In this document: positions 2,137 through 64,000 of the stretch, one piece after another | Layout of the letters: each line of letters opens with the position of its first letter | How positions within the stretch are numbered: position 1 is the first letter of the stretch | Source of the DNA: an uncultured Bacilli bacterium | GTDB taxonomy: Bacteria; Bacillota_I; Bacilli_A; RF39; UBA660 | Reading direction: 5' to 3' | Length of the DNA: 64,000 nt | Assembly: GCA_934101425.1 (NCBI GenBank) | Contig: CAKOQQ010000007.1 | Location: forward strand, 7,338 to 71,337 | Translations under genes and position numbers: made by a program | Notes under the pieces: model-generated | The model's input: only the letters and a program-made list of their open reading frames with translations | Databases searched by the model: none | What the model was told of the DNA's origin: nothing

Positions 2137-3351
2137 ATGAATGAACCTTTAGCAATTAAATTAAGACCACAAACTTTAAATGATGTAGTTGGTCAAACTC
2201 ATTTGATTGGTGAAAATAAAATATTAAGTAATATTGTAAAAAATAAACATTTATTTTCTATGATTTTTTATGGCAAACCTGGTATTGGAAAAACAACTAT
2301 TGCAAATGCTTTAGTGCATGAATTAGGACTAAAATATCGTTCACTTAATGCAGTTATAAATAATAAAAAAGATTTCGATATAGTTGTAGAAGAAGCTAAA
2401 ATGTATGGCAATATAGTTTTAATTATGGATGAAATACATAGAATGAATAAGGATAAACAAGATTTATTACTTCCTTATGTAGAAAATGGTTTAATAACAC
2501 TTATTGGTTTAACAACCTCTAATCCTTATCATAGTATTAATCCAGCTATAAGAAGTAGATGCCAAATTTTTGAACTTAAAGAATTAACTAAAGAAGATAT
2601 TATATTAGCTATTAAAAATGCTTGTAATAGTGAATATTTAAAGGATATAACTATAGATGATGAGGCAATTAATTATATTGCAACATACTCTAGCGGTGAT
2701 TTAAGAAGTGCCTATAATTTAATAGAAGTAGCTTATTTTTCATCTAATGATAAAGTAATTACTGTAGAATATTTAAAACAAATAAGTAATAAAACTATAT
2801 TTTTTGCTGATAAAAATGGTGATGGACATTATGATTTATTGTCTGCTTTTCAAAAGTCTATTAGAGGTAGTGATGTAGATGCATCTTTATATTATTTAGC
2901 TAGGCTCATTGAATCAGGCGATTTTGATAGTATTTATAGAAGAATGAGTGTTATAGCTTATGAAGATATAGGACTTGCTAATCCTTCAATTGGCCCCAAA
3001 GTAGATGCAGCAATTCACGCATGTGAACGTCTTGGTATGCCAGAAGCTAGAATACCTCTTTCTGTAGTTATTGTTGAAATGGCATTATCTCCTAAATCAA
3101 ATTCTGCCCATGTTGCTTTAGATTTAGCTTTAAATGATATTAGATCAGGATCAACTGGTAATGTTCCAAATCATATTAAAACAAATTCTAAAGATTATAA
3201 GTATCCGCACAACTATAAAAATGCTTACGTAAAACAACAATATTTACCTGATAATATAAAAGACAGAAGATATTATAAAGCTAGAACAACTAGCAAATAT
3301 GAAACATCATTAAAAAATATAAATGATAAATTAAAAGGAATTAGTAATTAA
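2137..3351 (+). CDS. rarA: replication-associated recombination protein A (AAA+ ATPase RarA/MgsA)
   Basis: 404 aa with Walker A GKPGIGKTT and typical RarA length and C-terminal domain. GGTGAT RBS. Confidence 0.85.
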   Translation: MNEPLAIKLRPQTLNDVVGQTHLIGENKILSNIVKNKHLFSMIFYGKPGIGKTTIANALVHELGLKYRSLNAVINNKKDFDIVVEEAKMYGNIVLIMDEIHRMNKDKQDLLLPYVENGLITLIGLTTSNPYHSINPAIRSRCQIFELKELTKEDIILAIKNACNSEYLKDITIDDEAINYIATYSSGDLRSAYNLIEVAYFSSNDKVITVEYLKQISNKTIFFADKNGDGHYDLLSAFQKSIRGSDVDASLYYLARLIESGDFDSIYRRMSVIAYEDIGLANPSIGPKVDAAIHACERLGMPEARIPLSVVIVEMALSPKSNSAHVALDLALNDIRSGSTGNVPNHIKTNSKDYKYPHNYKNAYVKQQYLPDNIKDRRYYKARTTSKYETSLKNINDKLKGISN

Positions 3352-7035: not shown

Positions 7036-7112
7036 TGGTAGCGACGGAGGGGATCGAACCCCCGACCTATTGGGTATGAACCAATCGCTCTAGCCAGCTG
7101 AGCTACATCGCC
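7036..7112 (-). tRNA. tRNA-Met (anticodon CAT), elongator type
   Basis: Cloverleaf found by hand. Acceptor GGCGATG/CGTCGCT (two GU pairs), D-arm GCTCAGCTGGCTAGAGC, anticodon stem ATTGG/CCAAT with loop TTCATAC, T-arm GGGGGTTCGATCCCCTC, encoded CCA. Near-identical to Bacillus elongator tRNA-Met and unlike initiator or Ile2. Confidence 0.85.
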
Positions 7113-10455: not shown

Positions 10456-10460
10456 GACAT

Positions 10461-10490
10461 AAAAAGCATATCAATGATATGCTTTTTATT
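10461..10490. terminator. bidirectional terminator
   Basis: AAAAAGCATATCAatgaTGATATGCTTTTT hairpin between convergent genes. Confidence 0.55.
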
Positions 10491-11007
10491 TTTTAAAAAT
10501 AGATAATACTTTCGATGACATAGTAATTATTTTTGTACTATTTTTAATAGCAACACCTTTTCCCATAGCTTTACCACCAATTGTAAGAGCTGCTATAGTA
10601 GCAGTTACTAATAATGATACTATAAATAGATTTATATCAAATTTTGAAGCTATAGAAGTAGCTACTGCAACACCTGCAGTACCTGATACGATACCACAAA
10701 TATCACCTACCACGTCGTTGCAAATAGATGATACTCTATCAGAATTTTTAATAAATTTAACGGCTATATTTGAACCTTTTACTTTTTTAGCATTCATAGA
10801 AATAATTGGTTTATCATCAGCAGATGTTACTGCAACACCAATCATATCAAATACTATACCTAATAAAATAAATATAAGTACTAATATTATACCAAGTATT
10901 AAACTAGCATCTTTAAGTACCATTTCTGATAAGAAAGAAAATAACATTGATATAGCAAATGCCATTATAGTTATAGTTATTATCCATTTTTTATTATTTT
11001 TTTTCAT
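10486..11007 (-). CDS. small 4-TM membrane protein, candidate OapA-like (OLE-associated protein A) partner of the upstream structured RNA
   Basis: 173 aa, four predicted TM helices, internal duplication (VFDMIGVAVTSADD / VVGDICGIVSGTAGVAVATS), one DxxxD (DVVGD). AAGGAG RBS. Directly downstream of and co-oriented with the ncRNA. Confidence 0.45.
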   Translation of the reverse strand: MKKNNKKWIITITIMAFAISMLFSFLSEMVLKDASLILGIILVLIFILLGIVFDMIGVAVTSADDKPIISMNAKKVKGSNIAVKFIKNSDRVSSICNDVVGDICGIVSGTAGVAVATSIASKFDINLFIVSLLVTATIAALTIGGKAMGKGVAIKNSTKIITMSSKVLSIFKK

Positions 11008-11017
11008 ATTACTCCTT

Positions 11018-11637
11018 ATAATAAAAAGGGACCAAGTCCCTTTATATACATCTTAAATGGCTATTAACATAATTAACTTTGCGTCTTAGGTCAAGTAGGT
11101 TTTCCCTGAATCTTGCATCACGTTACCATGGGTGCGGTTTCCCTTTAAAAGATTCAATATATCGTCTCCAAATATATGACTTGATTACCACTTAGTACGC
11201 ACTGTAATCTTATATTACGTCACTCTAGGGGATTTCCCCGGCTACTAATTTATTATTAATTCTTTTTTGCAAGTATTGTTTCAAACTGCGATTTTTAAAT
11301 AATCTTAGCTATAAACTACTTAAAATAGATCAGTTATCCCCATAACTCACTCAAGACAAGCTACGCTATTCATAACTTTCGCCACAAAATAGGTTCACGC
11401 CTAATTCGTATCTGGTCCGTCAACTAATAGTGTATAGGCCAAACACAAGATTAGGTCTCCATGAATGCTGGGTCGTTTGCGTATGCCATTACGGACGCCC
11501 ATCACTCTACCTTTCAGCATCCACCCCAAACTGGGCGTAAGAAGCAAACACCAAAAGTTTCACAGATGTGCTCTTTACCGGATTTTTAGCCCCGGCTTCC
11601 TAATAAATCAAATAGACTAGAATAATGTGCCACTTGA
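11018..11637 (-). ncRNA. large (~620 nt) structured non-coding RNA, candidate OLE (ornate, large, extremophilic) RNA
   Basis: ORF-free and markedly GC-enriched relative to the genome. G-rich on the minus strand. Nested helices GTTTGC(11475-80)/GCAAAC(11544-49) enclosing ACGCCCA(11495-501)/TGGGCGT(11532-38), a CCGG...CCGG hairpin (11578-95) and GGGGAaaTCCCC. Consensus promoter upstream and hairpin+U-tract at 11025-11043. Lacks RNase P GGAAAGUCC and tmRNA tRNA-like ends. Boundaries approximate. Confidence 0.45.
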
Positions 11638-11644
11638 TAGATAA

Positions 11645-11672
11645 ATTATATCATATTTTATAAAAATGTCAA
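11645..11672 (-). promoter_or_regulatory. near-consensus sigma-A promoter with extended -10 (TTGACA-16-TGaTATAAT) driving the ncRNA
   Basis: Minus strand reads TTGACATTTTTATAAAATATGATATAAT. Confidence 0.6.
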
Positions 11673-11680
11673 ATTGACAA

Positions 11681-12202
11681 TTATTTTCTCTTTTTTATTA
11701 CTTTGGCTGGATTACCTGCAACTATTGTATAACATTCTACATCTTTAGTAACAACAGCTCCAGCTGCAATAATTGATCCTTCATGAATAGTTACACCTGG
11801 TAATATTATTGCATTAGCTCCTATCCATACATCATTTTCTATAATAACTGGTTTTATTTCGCTATTTCCTTGCTTAATCATTGGTATATCTGTTCTATCA
11901 AATTTATGATTAGAAGTATATATAGAAACATTAGGTCCCATCATAACATTTGAACCAATAGTTACTGAAGATGTTATTTTAGCGTTAATACCAATACCAG
12001 AATTATCACCTATTTCAATATTTGGCGATATATTAGCATTTTTATCTATATTTATATTTTTACCAGTCTTATTTGCAAATCCTTTTACTAGTAAATTTCT
12101 TATTTGCTTACCAAATAAATTAATTGGAAAATCAGATGCTGGTAAATGTTTACCTATTAAATGATATAAAATATAACAAAAATATATTCGTAATTTACTC
12201 AT
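11681..12202 (-). CDS. sugar O-acetyltransferase, hexapeptide-repeat (LbH) family
   Basis: 173 aa with repeated [LIV]G.N..I hexapeptides ([25 protein letters not shown]). WbbJ/maltose acetyltransferase-like. Confidence 0.75.
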
Positions 12203-13346
12203 TAATTTCTTCCCCTTTTAAAATAATTTCTAGAAAATTTAACCATCTTTCTTTAATTTTTTCAAAAGAATATTTTTTAGCTGTCTCTTTAGCATTTTTT
12301 CCCATTATACTTATTTCTTTTTTATTATCCAATAGTTTAATTATTTTTTTAGCCATAACATCTTTACTTCTATTTTTTATTACATATCCAGAAAAATTAT
12401 TTTTTATAAGTTCCAAAGATCCAGAAGCACTATCAAAAATAATTCCAGGTAGACCATATGACATACCTTCTAAAAGAGCTATGCCAAATGATTCAGTATA
12501 TGATGTAACAATAAAAGCTTTAGAATGACTTAAAACATCATTGATATAATCTTTGTTTTGAAAGCCATGTAAGATGATATTATTTTCTAAATGTAAATTT
12601 GTTATTATATCTTTTAAATTATTTCTTTCTGGCCCATCACCAATTATATCTAGTTTATAATTAGGATTTTTTGCTACAACCTTTTTAAAAACATCTATTA
12701 AATCATCAAAACCCTTTTCTTTTGATAATCTCCCCACTGTTACAACATTTTTAGTATAATCACTATCTATTTCTGGAATATTATCAAGAGAGTTTGGCAT
12801 ATAATAACATTTTACTTTCCCTGTTAATGTTGCAGTATAAAAATTTGTAAGTTCTTTTGATACAGGCAATAAATAATCTATATTTTTGCATGCATCATTT
12901 AAATTTTGTATATATTTTTGATCATTTAAATGATGACGATGTTCTTGAGCTATTTTAATAATACTTTCTTTCCCGTATTTGCTTAAATAATTTGTAAATA
13001 ATACTCTCGTAGATATTATTACATCAGCATTACTATTTTTAATATAATCTATCATAGTTTTTTTTCTCAAATATAAAACTTTTATAGCTTTTATACCTTC
13101 TTTTAATAAATTAAAAATTTTAAAGTTTTTAAAGTTTTGCTTAATTTCTTTTTTATTTGGACCATAAGGTATTAAGTATTTTATTTTTACCTTGTCATCT
13201 ATTTTATATACAGGTTTCTTTCCCATTTTATAAGTACAAATTATTTCAACTTTATAATCATCACAAAGCATATTTGCAAGTGTTGCTACAGCTTTTTCAA
13301 CACCACCATAATTTAAATGTAATGATAATATTGCAATTTTTTTCAT
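12195..13346 (-). CDS. glycosyltransferase family 4 (GT-B)
   Basis: 383 aa with [16 protein letters not shown] (E-x7-E) motif. Paralogue of 15204-16427. Confidence 0.8.
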
Positions 13347-13366
13347 TTTATCACAACTCTTTTTCT

Positions 13367-14464
13367 TTAATTTGCATATTTTTCAATAATTGCATCAACA
13401 ATTCTTTCGCTTGCATGTCCATCACCATATGGATTAGAAGCTTTACTCATTTTTTCATATTTTTTATTATTATCTAATAATTCTTTAGTTTCACGAATTA
13501 TGTCTTCTTCTTTTGTTCCAACTAATTTTAATGTACCCGCATCAATTCCTTCCGGTCTTTCTGTTGTATCTCTAAGAACTAATACTGGTTTACCAAGTGA
13601 TGGAGCTTCTTCTTGAATTCCACCACTATCTGTTAGTATTAAATATGATTTATTTATTATATTATGAAAATCTAGCACATCTAGTGGCGGTACAATTTTA
13701 ACTTTATCATTATTAGCTAAGTATTCATCTACAATATTTTTAATTATTGGGTTTAAATGTACAGGATATAATACTCTTATATCTTCATATTCACTTGTTA
13801 ACTTATTTATAGCGCTAAAGATTCTCTTCATAGGTTCTCCTACATTTTCTCTTCTATGAGCTGTTAATAATATTAATCTTTTATCTTTAGCAAAATCTAA
13901 TATTTCATTTTCATAATCTTCTTTAACAGTAGTAGCCATAGCATCTATTGCAGTATTACCAGTTACATAAATATTTTTTCTACCTTCTTTAAGTAAATTT
14001 TCTTCACTTAATTTAGTTGGTGCAAAATTCATATCTGCTAAGCAACTAACCATTTGTCTATTCATTTCTTCTGGATATGGTGAATATTTTTCGTATGTTC
14101 TAAGTCCTGCTTCAACATGCCCTATATCTACTTGTTTGTAAAATGCTGCTAAAGCTCCTACAAATGTAGTAGTAGTATCACCATGAACAAGAACTATATT
14201 TGGTTTTTCATGTTCAATTATTTCTTCCAAAGCTATAAGTGATCTAGTAGTTATATCACCTAATGTTTGGCCTTGTTTCATAATATTTAAATCATATTCT
14301 GGCTTAATATCGAATGTTGTTAATACTTGATCTAACATTTCCCTATGTTGTGCTGTTACGCATACTATGCACTCTGTTTCTTCCCTTTTTTCTAATTCTT
14401 TAATAAGTGGTGCCATTTTAATGGCTTCTGGTCTAGTACCAAAAATTGTCATTACTTTTATCAT
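13367..14464 (-). CDS. wecB: UDP-N-acetylglucosamine 2-epimerase (non-hydrolysing), WecB/MnaA
   Basis: 365 aa starting MIKVMTIFGTRPEAIKMAPL, with the HVEAGLR motif. Confidence 0.9.
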   Translation of the reverse strand: MIKVMTIFGTRPEAIKMAPLIKELEKREETECIVCVTAQHREMLDQVLTTFDIKPEYDLNIMKQGQTLGDITTRSLIALEEIIEHEKPNIVLVHGDTTTTFVGALAAFYKQVDIGHVEAGLRTYEKYSPYPEEMNRQMVSCLADMNFAPTKLSEENLLKEGRKNIYVTGNTAIDAMATTVKEDYENEILDFAKDKRLILLTAHRRENVGEPMKRIFSAINKLTSEYEDIRVLYPVHLNPIIKNIVDEYLANNDKVKIVPPLDVLDFHNIINKSYLILTDSGGIQEEAPSLGKPVLVLRDTTERPEGIDAGTLKLVGTKEEDIIRETKELLDNNKKYEKMSKASNPYGDGHASERIVDAIIEKYAN

Positions 14465-14486
14465 ATATCCTCCTAATCAGCAATTA

Positions 14487-15197
14487 CTATTTCATTTTTT
14501 TAATTTTGAATATAAATTTTACATTATTATTATAAAATCTTTTTAATCTAGATGGTTCACACATAATTCTATATAACCATTCCATATTCATTTTAATAAA
14601 TAATTTTGGTGCTCTTTTCTTTGAACCACTTATTACATCTAGTGATCCACCTACTCCAACAAAAATACCTTTATCAAACTTATCTAAATGCTTATAGATA
14701 AGTTTTTCTTGATTAGGTATACCAAGAGCAACTAAGATTATATCTGGCTTTGATTTGATAATTTTTTCAAAATCCTTATCTTTATCTTTACTATAACCAT
14801 TTACCATACCTAAAATATTTAAATTAGGATATTTTTCTTTTAAAACATCTTTTAGTTTTACTAATACTTCTTCTTTAGAACCTAATATATATATTGATTT
14901 ATTATTTAAAGAACCAAGGCGTAATAGTTCTTCTGCTATTTCAACGCCTGGTATTCTTTCTTTTATATCATAATTAAGCATTTTAGCTGACTTCACTATA
15001 CCTATTCCATCAGGAACTATCGTAGTATCTTTTGATAATAATAATTTTTTAAAACTATCATCATTTTCTGCTATATTAAATGTTTCTGGATTTGCTGTTA
15101 CTATAAACATTTTTTTATTGTTTTCTAAATTTTCATCTAATACTTTATAAAAACTCTCTTTTGTATCTAAATATAATTTGTTAAATAAACTCTTCAT
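14487..15197 (-). CDS. tagA: WecB/TagA/CpsF family (GT26) N-acetylmannosaminyltransferase
   Basis: 236 aa with GT26 hallmarks (PDGIGIV, VGVGGSLDV). Confidence 0.75.
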   Translation of the reverse strand: MKSLFNKLYLDTKESFYKVLDENLENNKKMFIVTANPETFNIAENDDSFKKLLLSKDTTIVPDGIGIVKSAKMLNYDIKERIPGVEIAEELLRLGSLNNKSIYILGSKEEVLVKLKDVLKEKYPNLNILGMVNGYSKDKDKDFEKIIKSKPDIILVALGIPNQEKLIYKHLDKFDKGIFVGVGGSLDVISGSKKRAPKLFIKMNMEWLYRIMCEPSRLKRFYNNNVKFIFKIKKMK

Positions 15198-15203
15198 ACT
15201 ACC

Positions 15204-16427
15204 TCACTCTATTAAATTACTTGTATCTGGTTTTTGATTATCTTTATCTGCGATTTGTTGTAATAATGATTGTATATCATTTTTTGCATATATATCTTCT
15301 TTTATATCTTCAATTTTTACTTCTTTATCAAATTCTTTACCATTTATAATTGCATCTATAAAATCATTCCATCTATTTGTAAGTGAACTATAAGAATACT
15401 TTTTAGCTGTTTCTTTTGCTTTGTTACCAATAAGTATTTTAAATTCATCACTGCTTAATAAAAGTTTTACTTTTCTAGCCATTTCTTCGATATCTCTATT
15501 TTTTACAATATATCCATTTGAATTGTCTTCCATGAACTCTAATACACCAGTAGCTGTATCAAAAACTACAGATGGAAGCCCATATGACATCGCTTCTAAT
15601 AAGGAAAGTCCAAATGATTCTTTTTTACTTGCTAATACAAACACAGATGAATGACTTAATAAATCATTTATATAGTCTTTATTTTGGTATCCATGTAATG
15701 TTACTTTATCTTTTATTCTAAGATCAAATATTTTTTTCTTGATTTTATTAAGTTCAGGTCCATCTCCTACTATATCTAATGTAACATCAGGAAGTTCTAG
15801 TTGAACTTGATAATACATGTTTATTATATCTAAAACACCTTTATCACTAGTTAATCTACCAACAGTAATAATATTCTTTTTAGAAAAATCTGAATTTATA
15901 ATTGGTATATCATCTAGTACATTAGGCATATGATAACATGGCATTTTTAAATATTTTTTATAATAATCTCTAATTTCTTTTGATACAGTAAGAATATAAT
16001 TAGCATATTTATAATTTTTTCTTACTTTTTTTATTTCTTTTTTGTTATCCAAATGATAATTATTTTCTATAAACACCTTATATTTGTTCTTTTTATTATA
16101 TTTAAACCATTTTACATAAGTACTATTACTAGTTATAAGCACATCATAATCATTTTTCTTTATTTCTTTTTTTATTACACTTTTATTTAAAAATCCAACT
16201 TTTATTTTTAATAATAATTTCTTAACTATACTTCTTTTTTCTTCTTTTTCACTGCTAAGTAAAAATACTTGTTTTACGTTATCGTTTAGCTTATGAGTTC
16301 CATTTTCTTCTTTATATGTTTGTACTAGTGTTACTTCATGATTTACTGATAGCATATTTACAATACTACACAAAGATTTATCAATACCACTTAAACTAAG
16401 TTTTTTTGCTAATATTTTTATTTTCAT
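15204..16427 (-). CDS. glycosyltransferase family 4 with ~40-aa C-terminal extension
   Basis: 407 aa with ESFGLSLLEAMSYGLP and [16 protein letters not shown], which parallels 12195-13346. Confidence 0.8.
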   Translation of the reverse strand: MKIKILAKKLSLSGIDKSLCSIVNMLSVNHEVTLVQTYKEENGTHKLNDNVKQVFLLSSEKEEKRSIVKKLLLKIKVGFLNKSVIKKEIKKNDYDVLITSNSTYVKWFKYNKKNKYKVFIENNYHLDNKKEIKKVRKNYKYANYILTVSKEIRDYYKKYLKMPCYHMPNVLDDIPIINSDFSKKNIITVGRLTSDKGVLDIINMYYQVQLELPDVTLDIVGDGPELNKIKKKIFDLRIKDKVTLHGYQNKDYINDLLSHSSVFVLASKKESFGLSLLEAMSYGLPSVVFDTATGVLEFMEDNSNGYIVKNRDIEEMARKVKLLLSSDEFKILIGNKAKETAKKYSYSSLTNRWNDFIDAIINGKEFDKEVKIEDIKEDIYAKNDIQSLLQQIADKDNQKPDTSNLIE

Positions 16428-17602
16428 AAAGTCTCCTTATCTATATTCAAATATAAAATAATTGTTATTCCAAAATATATAGAAACTGCTGGTGCACTTA
16501 AGATATGACCTGCAAAAAAAGCTATTAAAAGAGACAACATAGTTATTAATATTAATATCATTTTATCATAATTATAGTTATTTAAATGTGATAATGCATA
16601 CTCCATCATTTTTAATACAATTTTAAAGAATGGAATCATAAATATTATAAATCCTATAATACCATATCTATATAATAAATCATAAAAATCCATTTCAACA
16701 TATTTTTCTAATACTTTATTATTTGTAGATCCTAATCCGAACAATTTTTCTTCTAAATTATGATTTATATATTCTCTAGTTGTATTATTTAAATATATAT
16801 CTCTAGATGAAAATACAGCATTAGTAGTACTTATATATCTTCCACTATTTAAATTACTTAAATATGAAGAATTAAAAAATAAAATAACTGTATAACTTAT
16901 AAAAAATACTATTTTAAATATATTTTTCTTATTTTTATCTTTAAGCAATATATGAATAAATAACGCGATTAGTGATATTAAAACCCCAAGAAGTGGTGTT
17001 TTAGTACCGAGCATCATCATCATAAATATAACATACATAACAAGTATAAAACTATACTTATTATTCTTTAAAATGTCTTCTAAAAATAATGGGAATAGAA
17101 TTGTTATTATTCCACTTATTTCATTTGCTGAATAATACCATCCTACAACCCCTGTAGTAACGGTATCACTATAACTATTAAATCCGGTATTTGTTAACTT
17201 CGCAATTAAAATAGTTGTTAAAATGAAAAATACATTATATTTTAAAATCTTTTTCATTTCTATATATGATATTTTATAATCATCATTATAATTAAGTAAA
17301 AATATAAAAATTATTGGTAAAAACATAAACTTTATAAGTTGTGTTCCACTGCTTACATAACTATTATTACCAATCAATATATGAATTATAGAAAATATTG
17401 ATAATAATAAATAATAAATAATACTTTTCTTTTTATATTTTGATTTAGTTATAAATAATATATAAATACCACTGAATAAAATTAATATTCCTTTAAAAAT
17501 TGTTCCTATTGATACTATATTACCATTTATTCTTTCTGTAAAAGATGTAATTAAATCTATAAATGGTAATATTAAAAATAAATAATAAATAATCTTTTTC
17601 AT
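16424..17602 (-). CDS. polytopic membrane protein, O-antigen polymerase/ligase (Wzy/WaaL)-like
   Basis: 392 aa with 10 or more TM segments, embedded in the glycosyltransferase cluster. Confidence 0.5.
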   Translation of the reverse strand: MKKIIYYLFLILPFIDLITSFTERINGNIVSIGTIFKGILILFSGIYILFITKSKYKKKSIIYYLLLSIFSIIHILIGNNSYVSSGTQLIKFMFLPIIFIFLLNYNDDYKISYIEMKKILKYNVFFILTTILIAKLTNTGFNSYSDTVTTGVVGWYYSANEISGIITILFPLFLEDILKNNKYSFILVMYVIFMMMMLGTKTPLLGVLISLIALFIHILLKDKNKKNIFKIVFFISYTVILFFNSSYLSNLNSGRYISTTNAVFSSRDIYLNNTTREYINHNLEEKLFGLGSTNNKVLEKYVEMDFYDLLYRYGIIGFIIFMIPFFKIVLKMMEYALSHLNNYNYDKMILILITMLSLLIAFFAGHILSAPAVSIYFGITIILYLNIDKETL

Positions 17603-18573
17603 ATAAACCTCGTTAATAATTTCACTGTTTTGTATTTTTTGTAATATAGCAAATTACAAGCTATCTTAAATTTTAAATTTTTCTTCTTGTAATATTTATT
17701 TTTTCTCCAATTTGGGCATTTTTCTTTTAACATTTTGTTTATTTTAAGTAAATCTTCTCTTGCTTCTTTAGTTTTAAATGGTAAAATTCTTAAAGAAGCA
17801 GATAAAAATATATGGTAAATGAATATAAATTCAAATTCTTCATCATAATTTTCTTTACTCTTTTTATATTTATCAAATAAAAAATCATAAGCGTAAAATA
17901 TATCTTTTAATCTTTTTGTATATTTTTCTTGATTCATCGTAGAATGTTTTCTTCTAACATATTTATAAGGTGCATATTTCATATATGCAATATTTTCTGC
18001 ATATATTGCATATATAGGTACAACTGCTAAATCTTCATATATATGCCTTTCAAGAAAATACAAATCATTTTTCAATAATATATCTTTCTTTATTATTTTA
18101 TTTGTTGGACCATTTGAAGAAACGATATAATTTTTTACTATATCACTTGTATAATAATTTATACCCTTTATTATAGTTTTATTTTTACCATCAATTTCAA
18201 ATCTTTCCATATCACATACTACTAAATCTGAATCAAATGAAATTGCTTTATTATACATTTTTTCGTACATTTTACTATCAACATAATCATCATCATCCAC
18301 AAATGCAATATACTCTCCTTTGGCTAATTTAATACAATAATTTCTTGCTGCTCCTTGCATTTGATTTTTTTGATAATAGTATTTAACTCTAGGATCTTTT
18401 ATTTGCAATACAAGATTTTTTGTATTATCTGTAGAACCATCATCTATAACAATTATTTCGATTTCTTTTAATGTCTGATCAAGTAATGAATTAATACATT
18501 TTAATATATATTGTTCACCATTGTAAGTTGGTACTATTATACTTATTTTTACCATATTCATCCACCTATTCAC
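17599..18573 (-). CDS. glycosyltransferase family 2
   Basis: IIVPTYNGEQYILKCINSLLDQT, DDGSTD and DDDD motifs. Confidence 0.8.
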   Translation of the reverse strand: MNRWMNMVKISIIVPTYNGEQYILKCINSLLDQTLKEIEIIVIDDGSTDNTKNLVLQIKDPRVKYYYQKNQMQGAARNYCIKLAKGEYIAFVDDDDYVDSKMYEKMYNKAISFDSDLVVCDMERFEIDGKNKTIIKGINYYTSDIVKNYIVSSNGPTNKIIKKDILLKNDLYFLERHIYEDLAVVPIYAIYAENIAYMKYAPYKYVRRKHSTMNQEKYTKRLKDIFYAYDFLFDKYKKSKENYDEEFEFIFIYHIFLSASLRILPFKTKEAREDLLKINKMLKEKCPNWRKNKYYKKKNLKFKIACNLLYYKKYKTVKLLTRFI

Positions 18574-53520: not shown

Positions 53521-54651
53521 TTATTTTGTTATAGGTTGAATATAGTTAATTTTATATTCCTCATTTATCATTTTGTTTAATGGAATATCTAATTCTTCAT
53601 TATTTTTTGCAAATAAGAAAATGACATCTTCTGTTTTTGTACTTAAAAGTAATGAATTAGGAAAACCACCTATTTTTAATTCAGAATATATAAAAGTAAT
53701 AATTTCCATTGGAATATTTTCTGGTAATACTTTTATATTTAATTCATCTAAATATTCTTGTTCAGCTTTTGTTAAACTATAATCATTTACGTTATATAGA
53801 ATTGTATAGTTATCTTTATAAGTATCATATACTTGTTTAATCATATCTTTCATTTCAGCTTTAGTATACTTAGAAGTGTTACTACCAATTATAACTAAAA
53901 ATGGTTTTGTAGAAGTAAAATACTTATTATCATAATCTTTTTTGTCTACATTTATAATTTTTAATAAACTAGCTCTTTGTTCAGTTGTTAAACTATTGTA
54001 TATAGTTTTTGGATCATCTAAAACGAAATTAACTTTTTTTATTTCATCATTTACTTTATCTTCGTAAGCTGTAATATATTCTGGATATTGTAAATAATAT
54101 CTTGTATTATCTCTCTTTGCTGATATTAATAAATAATTATGATTATAATTATCTAAATCAAAATTATCCTTAAAGCCGTTAAATTCATTTTCATGTTTTT
54201 TATATATTTCGTAGCCATTTTCAAATTCATAATCATAATAATTATTATATGAATCTATACCATTTGAAAATATAGTTACATCATAATTATCTTTTAAATT
54301 AAGTTCAAATTCTAATAAATAATACTTTTCATCTAACATTAAATGAAATTTAGAATTACTATTATTATCTTTTATAAACTCATTTATTTCTTTTATTAAA
54401 TTTTTATCAAATTTACCATTATTTTTTGATATTTTAATATTTTTATTAGCATTTAAATAATCAGTATTTATTAAATCAGTATCTGTATACCATATAAATG
54501 ATTTATTATCATCTGTTTTTACTAAATTTAATAATGTATAAACAGTTGATAAATTAGAATCTGTAACATATATATAATAATCTTTTACTTCTTTTTCTTT
54601 AGCACATCCAACTAATAAAAATACCAATAATAATGCAATTATCTTCTTCAT
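53521..54651 (-). CDS. lipoprotein, hypothetical (376 aa)
   Basis: Start MKKIIALLLVFLLVGCAKE after AGGTGG RBS, with lipobox LVGC. The track ORF is extended by 15 aa. Confidence 0.6.
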   Translation of the reverse strand: MKKIIALLLVFLLVGCAKEKEVKDYYIYVTDSNLSTVYTLLNLVKTDDNKSFIWYTDTDLINTDYLNANKNIKISKNNGKFDKNLIKEINEFIKDNNSNSKFHLMLDEKYYLLEFELNLKDNYDVTIFSNGIDSYNNYYDYEFENGYEIYKKHENEFNGFKDNFDLDNYNHNYLLISAKRDNTRYYLQYPEYITAYEDKVNDEIKKVNFVLDDPKTIYNSLTTEQRASLLKIINVDKKDYDNKYFTSTKPFLVIIGSNTSKYTKAEMKDMIKQVYDTYKDNYTILYNVNDYSLTKAEQEYLDELNIKVLPENIPMEIITFIYSELKIGGFPNSLLLSTKTEDVIFLFAKNNEELDIPLNKMINEEYKINYIQPITK

Positions 54652-54727
54652 CTTACCACCTATTCTAATGATATCATATGCTAAAAATATTTTCAATAAT
54701 AATAAAAAGAAAAAGAGACATTGTCTC

Positions 54728-63793: not shown

Positions 63794-63930
63794 TTCACAC
63801 CTCCCTAGGCTAATGTACCAAATAAAAGCCTTACTAAAACAGTAAGGCCGAATAAACTTTATTATTAAGTTCCTCGGTAGGAAATATTAAGCTTTCGCTC
63901 CTACTGTCTATGGTACTAAATTATTTAATT
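63794..63930 (-). promoter_or_regulatory. rplJ (L10) leader with hairpin+U-tract attenuator
   Basis: GCCTTACTgttttAGTAAGGC (63828-63848) followed by TTTTATTTGG on the minus strand, immediately 5' of the rplJ RBS. Its position matches the L10-leader autoregulatory element of Bacillota. Confidence 0.4.
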
Positions 63931-64000
63931 TTTCAAGAACAAATTGATTATAACATACTTTTTATTAAATGTCAAAAGAATTTAAATCAATTTTAATTCC

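Follow-up and report, generated by a model that had tools for sequence, protein, structure and literature searches.

The window analysed here, a stretch of 64,000 nucleotides with a GC content of 25%, holds a structured RNA directly followed by a gene for a small membrane protein, and the question raised by this locus is whether that protein is OapA (OLE-associated protein A). OapA is encoded directly downstream of ole more often than any other protein; four TM helices are predicted in it, and its cytoplasmic face bears conserved basic residues in a cluster. The OapA of Halalkalibacterium halodurans, of about 21 kDa, binds OLE cooperatively, with a protein:RNA ratio of 2:1 or higher, and the membrane localisation of OLE is OapA-dependent (PMC12265935, PMC11332333, PMC9723947, PMC7936274). 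Stress phenotypes (ethanol, cold and Mg2+) have been shown experimentally in H. halodurans, and that any OapA transports ions is so far a hypothesis in published work. All statements made below on the window protein are drawn from homology, synteny and predicted fold. The features of the locus are listed in Table 1.

Table 1. Coordinates (window numbering) of the features of the ole-oapA locus and of other elements of the window.
Feature	Position	Strand	Details
tRNA	7039..7112	-	Rfam; one found
Convergent ORF, 193 aa	9874..10455	+	Hydrophobic stretches; no Pfam match
14-bp hairpin flanked by T and A runs	10459..10489	.	At the oapA stop codon; pattern scan
oapA CDS	10486..11007	-	173 aa, stop codon included, ATG start; ORF call and homologues
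DxxxD codons, D98-V-V-G-D102	10702..10716	-	On TM3; sole DxxxD in the protein
Ribosome-binding site AAGGAG	11012..11017	-	4 nt ahead of the oapA ATG; read from sequence
Terminator-like hairpin AAAGGGAC-TTG-GTCCCTTT, then TTATTAT	11025..11043	-	Between OLE and oapA; pattern scan
OLE RNA gene	11041..11649	-	Rfam RF01071, 394.9 bits, E 1.6e-112, model positions 1-616 (full length)
Consensus sigma-70 promoter	11645..11672	-	TTGACA, 16 nt, TG-extended TATAAT; 12/12 matches
Envelope-polysaccharide/teichoic-acid-like cluster	11681..18573	-	Directly upstream of ole
L10 leader	63813..63931	-	Rfam, 77.8 bits; upstream of rplJ-rplL

The OLE RNA was recognised by an Rfam scan of the whole window, in which the gathering score of the OLE model is 50. 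The oapA start was found 33 nt past the end of the OLE model and in the same orientation. The consensus promoter would drive OLE and, via read-through, probably oapA too; the OLE RNA of H. halodurans also has its own strong proximal promoter (PMC3413148). The Rfam OLE model, the consensus of which begins with 'uaauau', overlaps with its first bases the -10 box of the window promoter, and it probably includes promoter sequence.

According to the earlier note the gene is co-oriented with the RNA and separated from it only by a hairpin. The co-orientation, the short gap and the hairpin were all found in the window, but the hairpin does not stand as a feature of the family: a terminator-like hairpin between OLE and oapA was detected in only 14 of 69 related loci, which rules it out as a conserved trait and makes it a lineage-specific one. 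The fold of the window hairpin (-12 kcal/mol) is only modestly better than that of shuffled sequence (z -1.45). Its probable role is to mark or stabilise the 3' end of OLE and to limit the read-through that reaches oapA. The 14-bp hairpin at the other end of the gene is likely to be a bidirectional terminator common to oapA and the convergent ORF.

The reading frame itself is real, as shown by its ATG start, the AAGGAG site ahead of it and its homologues. A search of a large protein collection with the product (calculated mass about 18.3 kDa) gave 7956 homologues at E ≤ 0.001, with a top E value of 1.9e-91, and for this reason it is no chance ORF. All of the best 120 of these 7956 homologues were 173–210 aa long; among the same 120, a precomputed PF01595 tag was present in a minority and a name in almost none. 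Long ORFs arise easily at 25% GC and no curated family matched above its threshold, so that a spurious ORF in AT-rich DNA, or a small membrane protein of an unrelated family such as MntP, YtaF or similar, had to be considered. Against this reading stand the number of homologues, with E values down to 1e-91 and many invariant residues, and the confident AlphaFold2 (AF2) fold described below; no match to MntP or YtaF was obtained at E ≤ 1. Membership of MntP, YtaF or another unrelated family, which the earlier note had named as the finding that would speak against OapA, was not seen in the Pfam or NCBIfam scans, the latter giving no match to any model. Homology and conservation refute this explanation, to which we attach practically no credence.

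Linkage to the RNA was analysed in a sample of 80 loci, with one genome per species and relatives at 41–62% identity, each of which was scanned with Rfam. Most of these loci came from uncultured gut 'Bacilli', 'Mollicutes' or 'Tenericutes' MAGs, and from Oscillospiraceae. As to whether the homologues always sit 3' of an OLE-like RNA, OLE was present upstream on the same strand in 77 of the 80 loci (96% of the genomes sampled). The distance from the end of the OLE model to the first aligned codon had a median of 79 nt and was 200 nt or less in 68 loci; in three others (L021, L032 and L079) OLE and the oapA homologue are 1.1–1.8 kb apart, which, compared with the usual spacing of under 200 nt, indicates an insertion between them. 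The three exceptions (L006, L016 and L031) showed no OLE within 2.5 kb when re-scanned at E ≤ 1, and in these OLE may have been lost or relocated. Their homologues, with 50–57% identity, are located at about 2450–3030 in each locus. In L031 the homologue is preceded by an AAA_21/AbiEii-like gene and by AT-rich DNA without coding sequence, about 640 nt long, and glyA is still found downstream, as in the window. An identical protein with identical neighbours was found on several human-gut metagenome contigs, Hadza samples among them.

These data bear on the explanation that the protein is a truncated stand-alone Mg2+/Co2+ transporter of the CNNM/CorB type, whose adjacency to OLE is functionally meaningless. 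The three homologues without an adjacent OLE are in its favour, but the presence of OLE in 77 of 80 loci across a divergence of 41–62% is no coincidence. The remaining evidence on this point comes from the topology and fold of the protein.

Hydropathy analysis of the window protein showed four hydrophobic peaks, at residues 9–27, 35–53, 99–121 and 125–143. The AF2 model (pLDDT 85.9, pTM 0.77) contained helices at residues 5–32, 36–62, 65–73, 79–87, 89–123, 127–155 and 157–171, of which four (5–32, 36–62, 89–123 and 127–155) are long, and the four TM helices predicted earlier were thus confirmed by both approaches. The N-terminus, the loop 63–96 and the C-terminal segment, with net charges of +4, +4 and +6, respectively, fall on the same predicted side of the membrane, which by the positive-inside rule would be the cytoplasmic one.

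In an alignment of 81 sequences D54, D98, D102, K146 and K150 were invariant. D98 and D102, present in 81 of 81 sequences, were also invariant in alignments A2 and A3, whereas D64 was found in 59 of the 81 and position 65 was mostly occupied by Glu. The conservation of Asp residues claimed beforehand therefore holds for D54, D98 and D102, and not for the variable D64 and D65. Given the predicted topology, the invariant polar residues (D54, N97, D98, D102, T142, G144/G145, K146 and K150) are placed toward the predicted cytoplasmic ends of helices 2–4. The count of one clear DxxxD was exact (D98-VVG-D102), and the concern attached to it, that a single motif might be too few for OapA, is moot because the OapA family is defined by one such Asp pair. 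The H. halodurans protein has the strictly conserved aspartates D100 and D104 (PMC9723947, PMC7936274), and its PM1 mutant, D100A+D104A, is dominant negative (PMC9723947). By residue number and motif D98/D102 is the positional counterpart of this pair, at almost the same position.

The internal two-fold repeat that had been read in the protein found no statistical support. In a half-versus-half profile-profile comparison built on a 100-sequence alignment, hhalign aligned residues 1–90 with residues 91–173 at a probability of 0.3% and E 0.21 over 14 columns. The resemblance between the N-terminal and C-terminal halves consists of a short Gly/Ala/Val-rich stretch of membrane helix, in a register unlike that of the earlier pairing, and the repeat was rejected.

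The Pfam scan matched PF01595 (CNNM/DUF21) to residues 42–172 with 22.6 bits and E 9.2e-5, below the gathering threshold of 28.4; of the more distant relatives, P0121 passes this threshold with 31 bits and P0128 fails it with 24.1 bits. No PDB entry was matched by sequence, either with the single protein or with two family profiles. In the Foldseek search the only credible PDB matches of the model were MtCorB (7m1t/7m1u) and the CorC membrane domain (7cff/7cfg), with probabilities of 0.96–1.0 and TM-scores of about 0.5–0.6. The CorC membrane domain is built of TM1, CH1, CH2, TM2, TM3 and a belt helix, with an extracellular N-terminus (PMC7875539). The window protein shares with the CNNM/CorC/CorB/MpfA proteins (PF01595; 7M1T, 7M1U, 7CFF, 7CFG) the succession in which a TM helix is followed by a pair of short cytoplasmic helices, a further two TM helices and the belt helix, as well as conserved polar residues within membrane helices. 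It differs from them in the extra N-terminal TM helix and in the absence of a CBS pair and of a CorC/HlyC domain, neither of which was found in it by Pfam; the chain ends at residue 173, after the belt helix. From the model, OapA looks like a DUF21 core with an additional N-terminal TM helix that would return the N-terminus to the cytoplasm.

By pattern, the Mg2+ ligands of TpCorC (Ser43, Ser47, Asn90, Gly129 and Glu130) do not appear to be kept as a set in the window family. There is a parallel in pattern between N90-x3-N94 (TM2) and G129-E130-x3-K134 (TM3) of CorC and D98-x3-D102 and G145-K146-x3-K150 of the window protein. The parallel is suggestive of a possible replacement of Asn by Asp and of Glu by Lys relative to the CorC Mg2+ site.

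The CNNM, CorB and DUF21 names carried by relatives in databases, the weak PF01595 match and the CorB/CorC-like fold are what a stand-alone transporter has on its side. Besides the linkage to OLE, this explanation is opposed by the PF01595 score, which is under the gathering threshold, and by the lack, in a protein of 173 aa, of the CBS pair and CorC/HlyC domain that define MpfA/CorC, and we regard it as very improbable. The full-length Rfam OLE, the linkage in the sampled loci, the weak CNNM/DUF21 signal and the CorB/CorC-like fold support instead the OapA-like protein 3' of OLE RNA that the earlier note had put forward as a candidate, and the window gene encodes, with a high degree of confidence, an orthologue of OapA.

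The protein can also be brought into relation with the classical loci. The top OLE score among the loci (558 bits) was obtained for L071, from Candidatus Petromonas tenebris, in which the gene order is xseB, ispA, DUF212, OLE, homologue and dxs. We take this order to match that of the H. halodurans isoprenoid and DNA-repair operon in which ole-oapA is located. Genes for isoprenoid biosynthesis, DNA repair and cell-wall synthesis are common in the clusters around ole. The window protein showed 41% identity over the full length with the Petromonas protein (E 6e-52) and 42% identity, also in a full-length alignment, with a protein of Caminicella sporogenes. The tie to H. halodurans OapA (WP_010898928.1) is an indirect, transitive one, running via the homologue in the xseB-ispA-OLE-x-dxs context.

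In agreement with orthology, the window gene resembles that of H. halodurans OapA (BH2780 / WP_010898928.1) in its location directly 3' of ole and its co-orientation with it. Both proteins are small and share basic segments in the cytoplasm, a prediction of four TM helices and the invariant Asp pair at i/i+4 (98/102 and 100/104, matched by residue number and motif). Both have weak CNNM homology and a CorB-like predicted fold: the homology of OapA to the CNNM/DUF21 domain of MpfA is weak, OapA makes up the cluster that comes next after MpfA when PF01595 is searched, and the AlphaFold model of H. halodurans OapA resembles MtCorB 7M1U (PMC11332333). Compared with its H. halodurans counterpart of about 21 kDa, the window protein (173 aa, about 18 kDa) is shorter, chiefly at its two ends. 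Its locus also differs: in place of ispA and dxs there are genes for envelope polysaccharides on the upstream side and glyA-folD on the downstream side, the RNA is set apart from the gene by a terminator-like hairpin, and no candidate for OapB or OapC is present within the 64 kb. The hosts are unlike as well, H. halodurans being an extremophile and the window host an uncultured low-GC gut bacterium.

When the homologue search was seeded with the Petromonas protein, relatives were found in many cultured Clostridia. The public names of relatives were 'hypothetical', 'CNNM transmembrane domain-containing protein', 'Mg2+ and Co2+ transporter CorB' and 'DUF21 domain-containing protein'. Some relatives from cultured Clostridia are labelled 'CBS domain containing-hemolysin-like protein'. 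The OapA-family proteins of cultured Clostridia have no CBS domain, which points to a systematic mis- or under-annotation. None of the homologues found carried OapA as its public name, and no NCBIfam or Pfam model names the family, so that annotation pipelines miss OapA.

The envelope cluster directly upstream of ole codes for a hexapeptide acetyltransferase, a GT4, a UDP-GlcNAc 2-epimerase, WecG/TagA, a second GT4, an O-antigen-ligase-like protein and a GT2. It is not the classical ispA context; the literature links ole neighbourhoods to cell-wall synthesis too. Downstream of oapA the convergent ORF is followed by glyA and folD. This ORF was present in 5 of 5 metagenome contigs that carry an identical oapA, but it was rejected as a conserved OLE partner, since Pfam gave no match to it and none of the 80 loci held a homologue. 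Neither OapB (KOW) nor OapC (L7Ae/YbxF) was found among the nine small ORFs scanned in the 64-kb window, a result that says nothing on the genome as a whole. It agrees with published work in which some gut clades with reduced genomes lack OapB and OapC. A CNNM-CBS protein of the MpfA type was found neither in the window nor in the fetched loci. Elsewhere in the window, an ORF of 391 aa directly downstream of rpoC (53521..54696, minus strand) gave no Pfam match at E ≤ 1e-6.

From these features a mode of action of the locus can be proposed. The unit would begin with the consensus promoter and an OLE RNA of about 600 nt, continue with the terminator-like hairpin, which is weak, and with oapA, and close with a strong terminator. 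The promoter would yield abundant OLE and the weak hairpin would pass a fraction of the transcripts into oapA; so compact a unit could give an excess of OLE RNA, oapA being translated from the read-through transcripts. By the positive-inside rule, the protein would be inserted into the membrane with four TM helices and both termini in the cytoplasm. Helix 1 would be the N-terminal addition, and helices 2–4, the two short cytoplasmic helices and the belt helix would constitute the DUF21 architecture of CNNM/CorC. OapA, probably as a dimer, would then hold OLE at the membrane, the RNA being bound, by homology, most likely by the Lys/Arg-rich N-terminus, the 63–96 loop and the C-terminal helix. 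A site for the binding or transport of a divalent cation (Mg2+) would most likely, again by homology, be formed by D54, N97, D98, D102, T142, K146 and K150, close to the inner leaflet. The OLE RNA would then take the place of the regulatory CBS and CorC domains, which are absent from OapA as compared with MpfA-type transporters.

An OapA orthologue could instead be a passive anchor or chaperone of OLE with no role in the binding or transport of ions, its Asp residues contacting other partners or Mg2+ bound to the RNA. What experiments show for OapA is limited to RNA binding and membrane localisation, and a recent membrane-spanning-RNA model of OLE requires shielding by protein. Furthermore, the position of the CorC ligand Glu130 appears, by pattern, to correspond to the invariant Lys K146. 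With such a role it would be hard to explain why the DUF21 architecture is kept and why acidic and polar residues within the membrane are invariant; moreover, disruption of the OLE complex leads to Mg2+ hypersensitivity, like the loss of mpfA, and MpfA anticorrelates with OLE across Bacillota. On balance we consider a purely passive OapA possible but rather doubtful. An OapA with a cation site is the reading preferred here, and it may take a particular form in this lineage, although we judge this improbable: a reduced low-GC gut lineage could have retained a minimal OLE + OapA module, with its own promoter, attenuating hairpin and terminator and without OapB/OapC, perhaps with a rewired cation site in which Asp98/Asp102 replace the Asn pair and Lys146 replaces the Mg2+-ligand Glu. 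If the site were so rewired, OapA would be no Mg2+ transporter alone and the cation site would be shared with the RNA backbone.

The ole-oapA pairing has been known since 2006, and OLE and OapA in uncultured gut clades have already been surveyed (PMC11332333); the evidence supports the window gene as a new orthologue in a family that is already well described, and its genomic arrangement is a known one too. The gene and its thousands of relatives go under 'hypothetical', 'CNNM' or 'CorB' in public databases. The compact and self-contained ole-oapA unit of a small-genome gut bacterium could serve as a minimal system for the reconstitution of the OLE particle, and the invariant residues D54, N97, D98, D102, T142, K146 and K150 are targets for mutagenesis directed at the question of whether OapA moves divalent cations.
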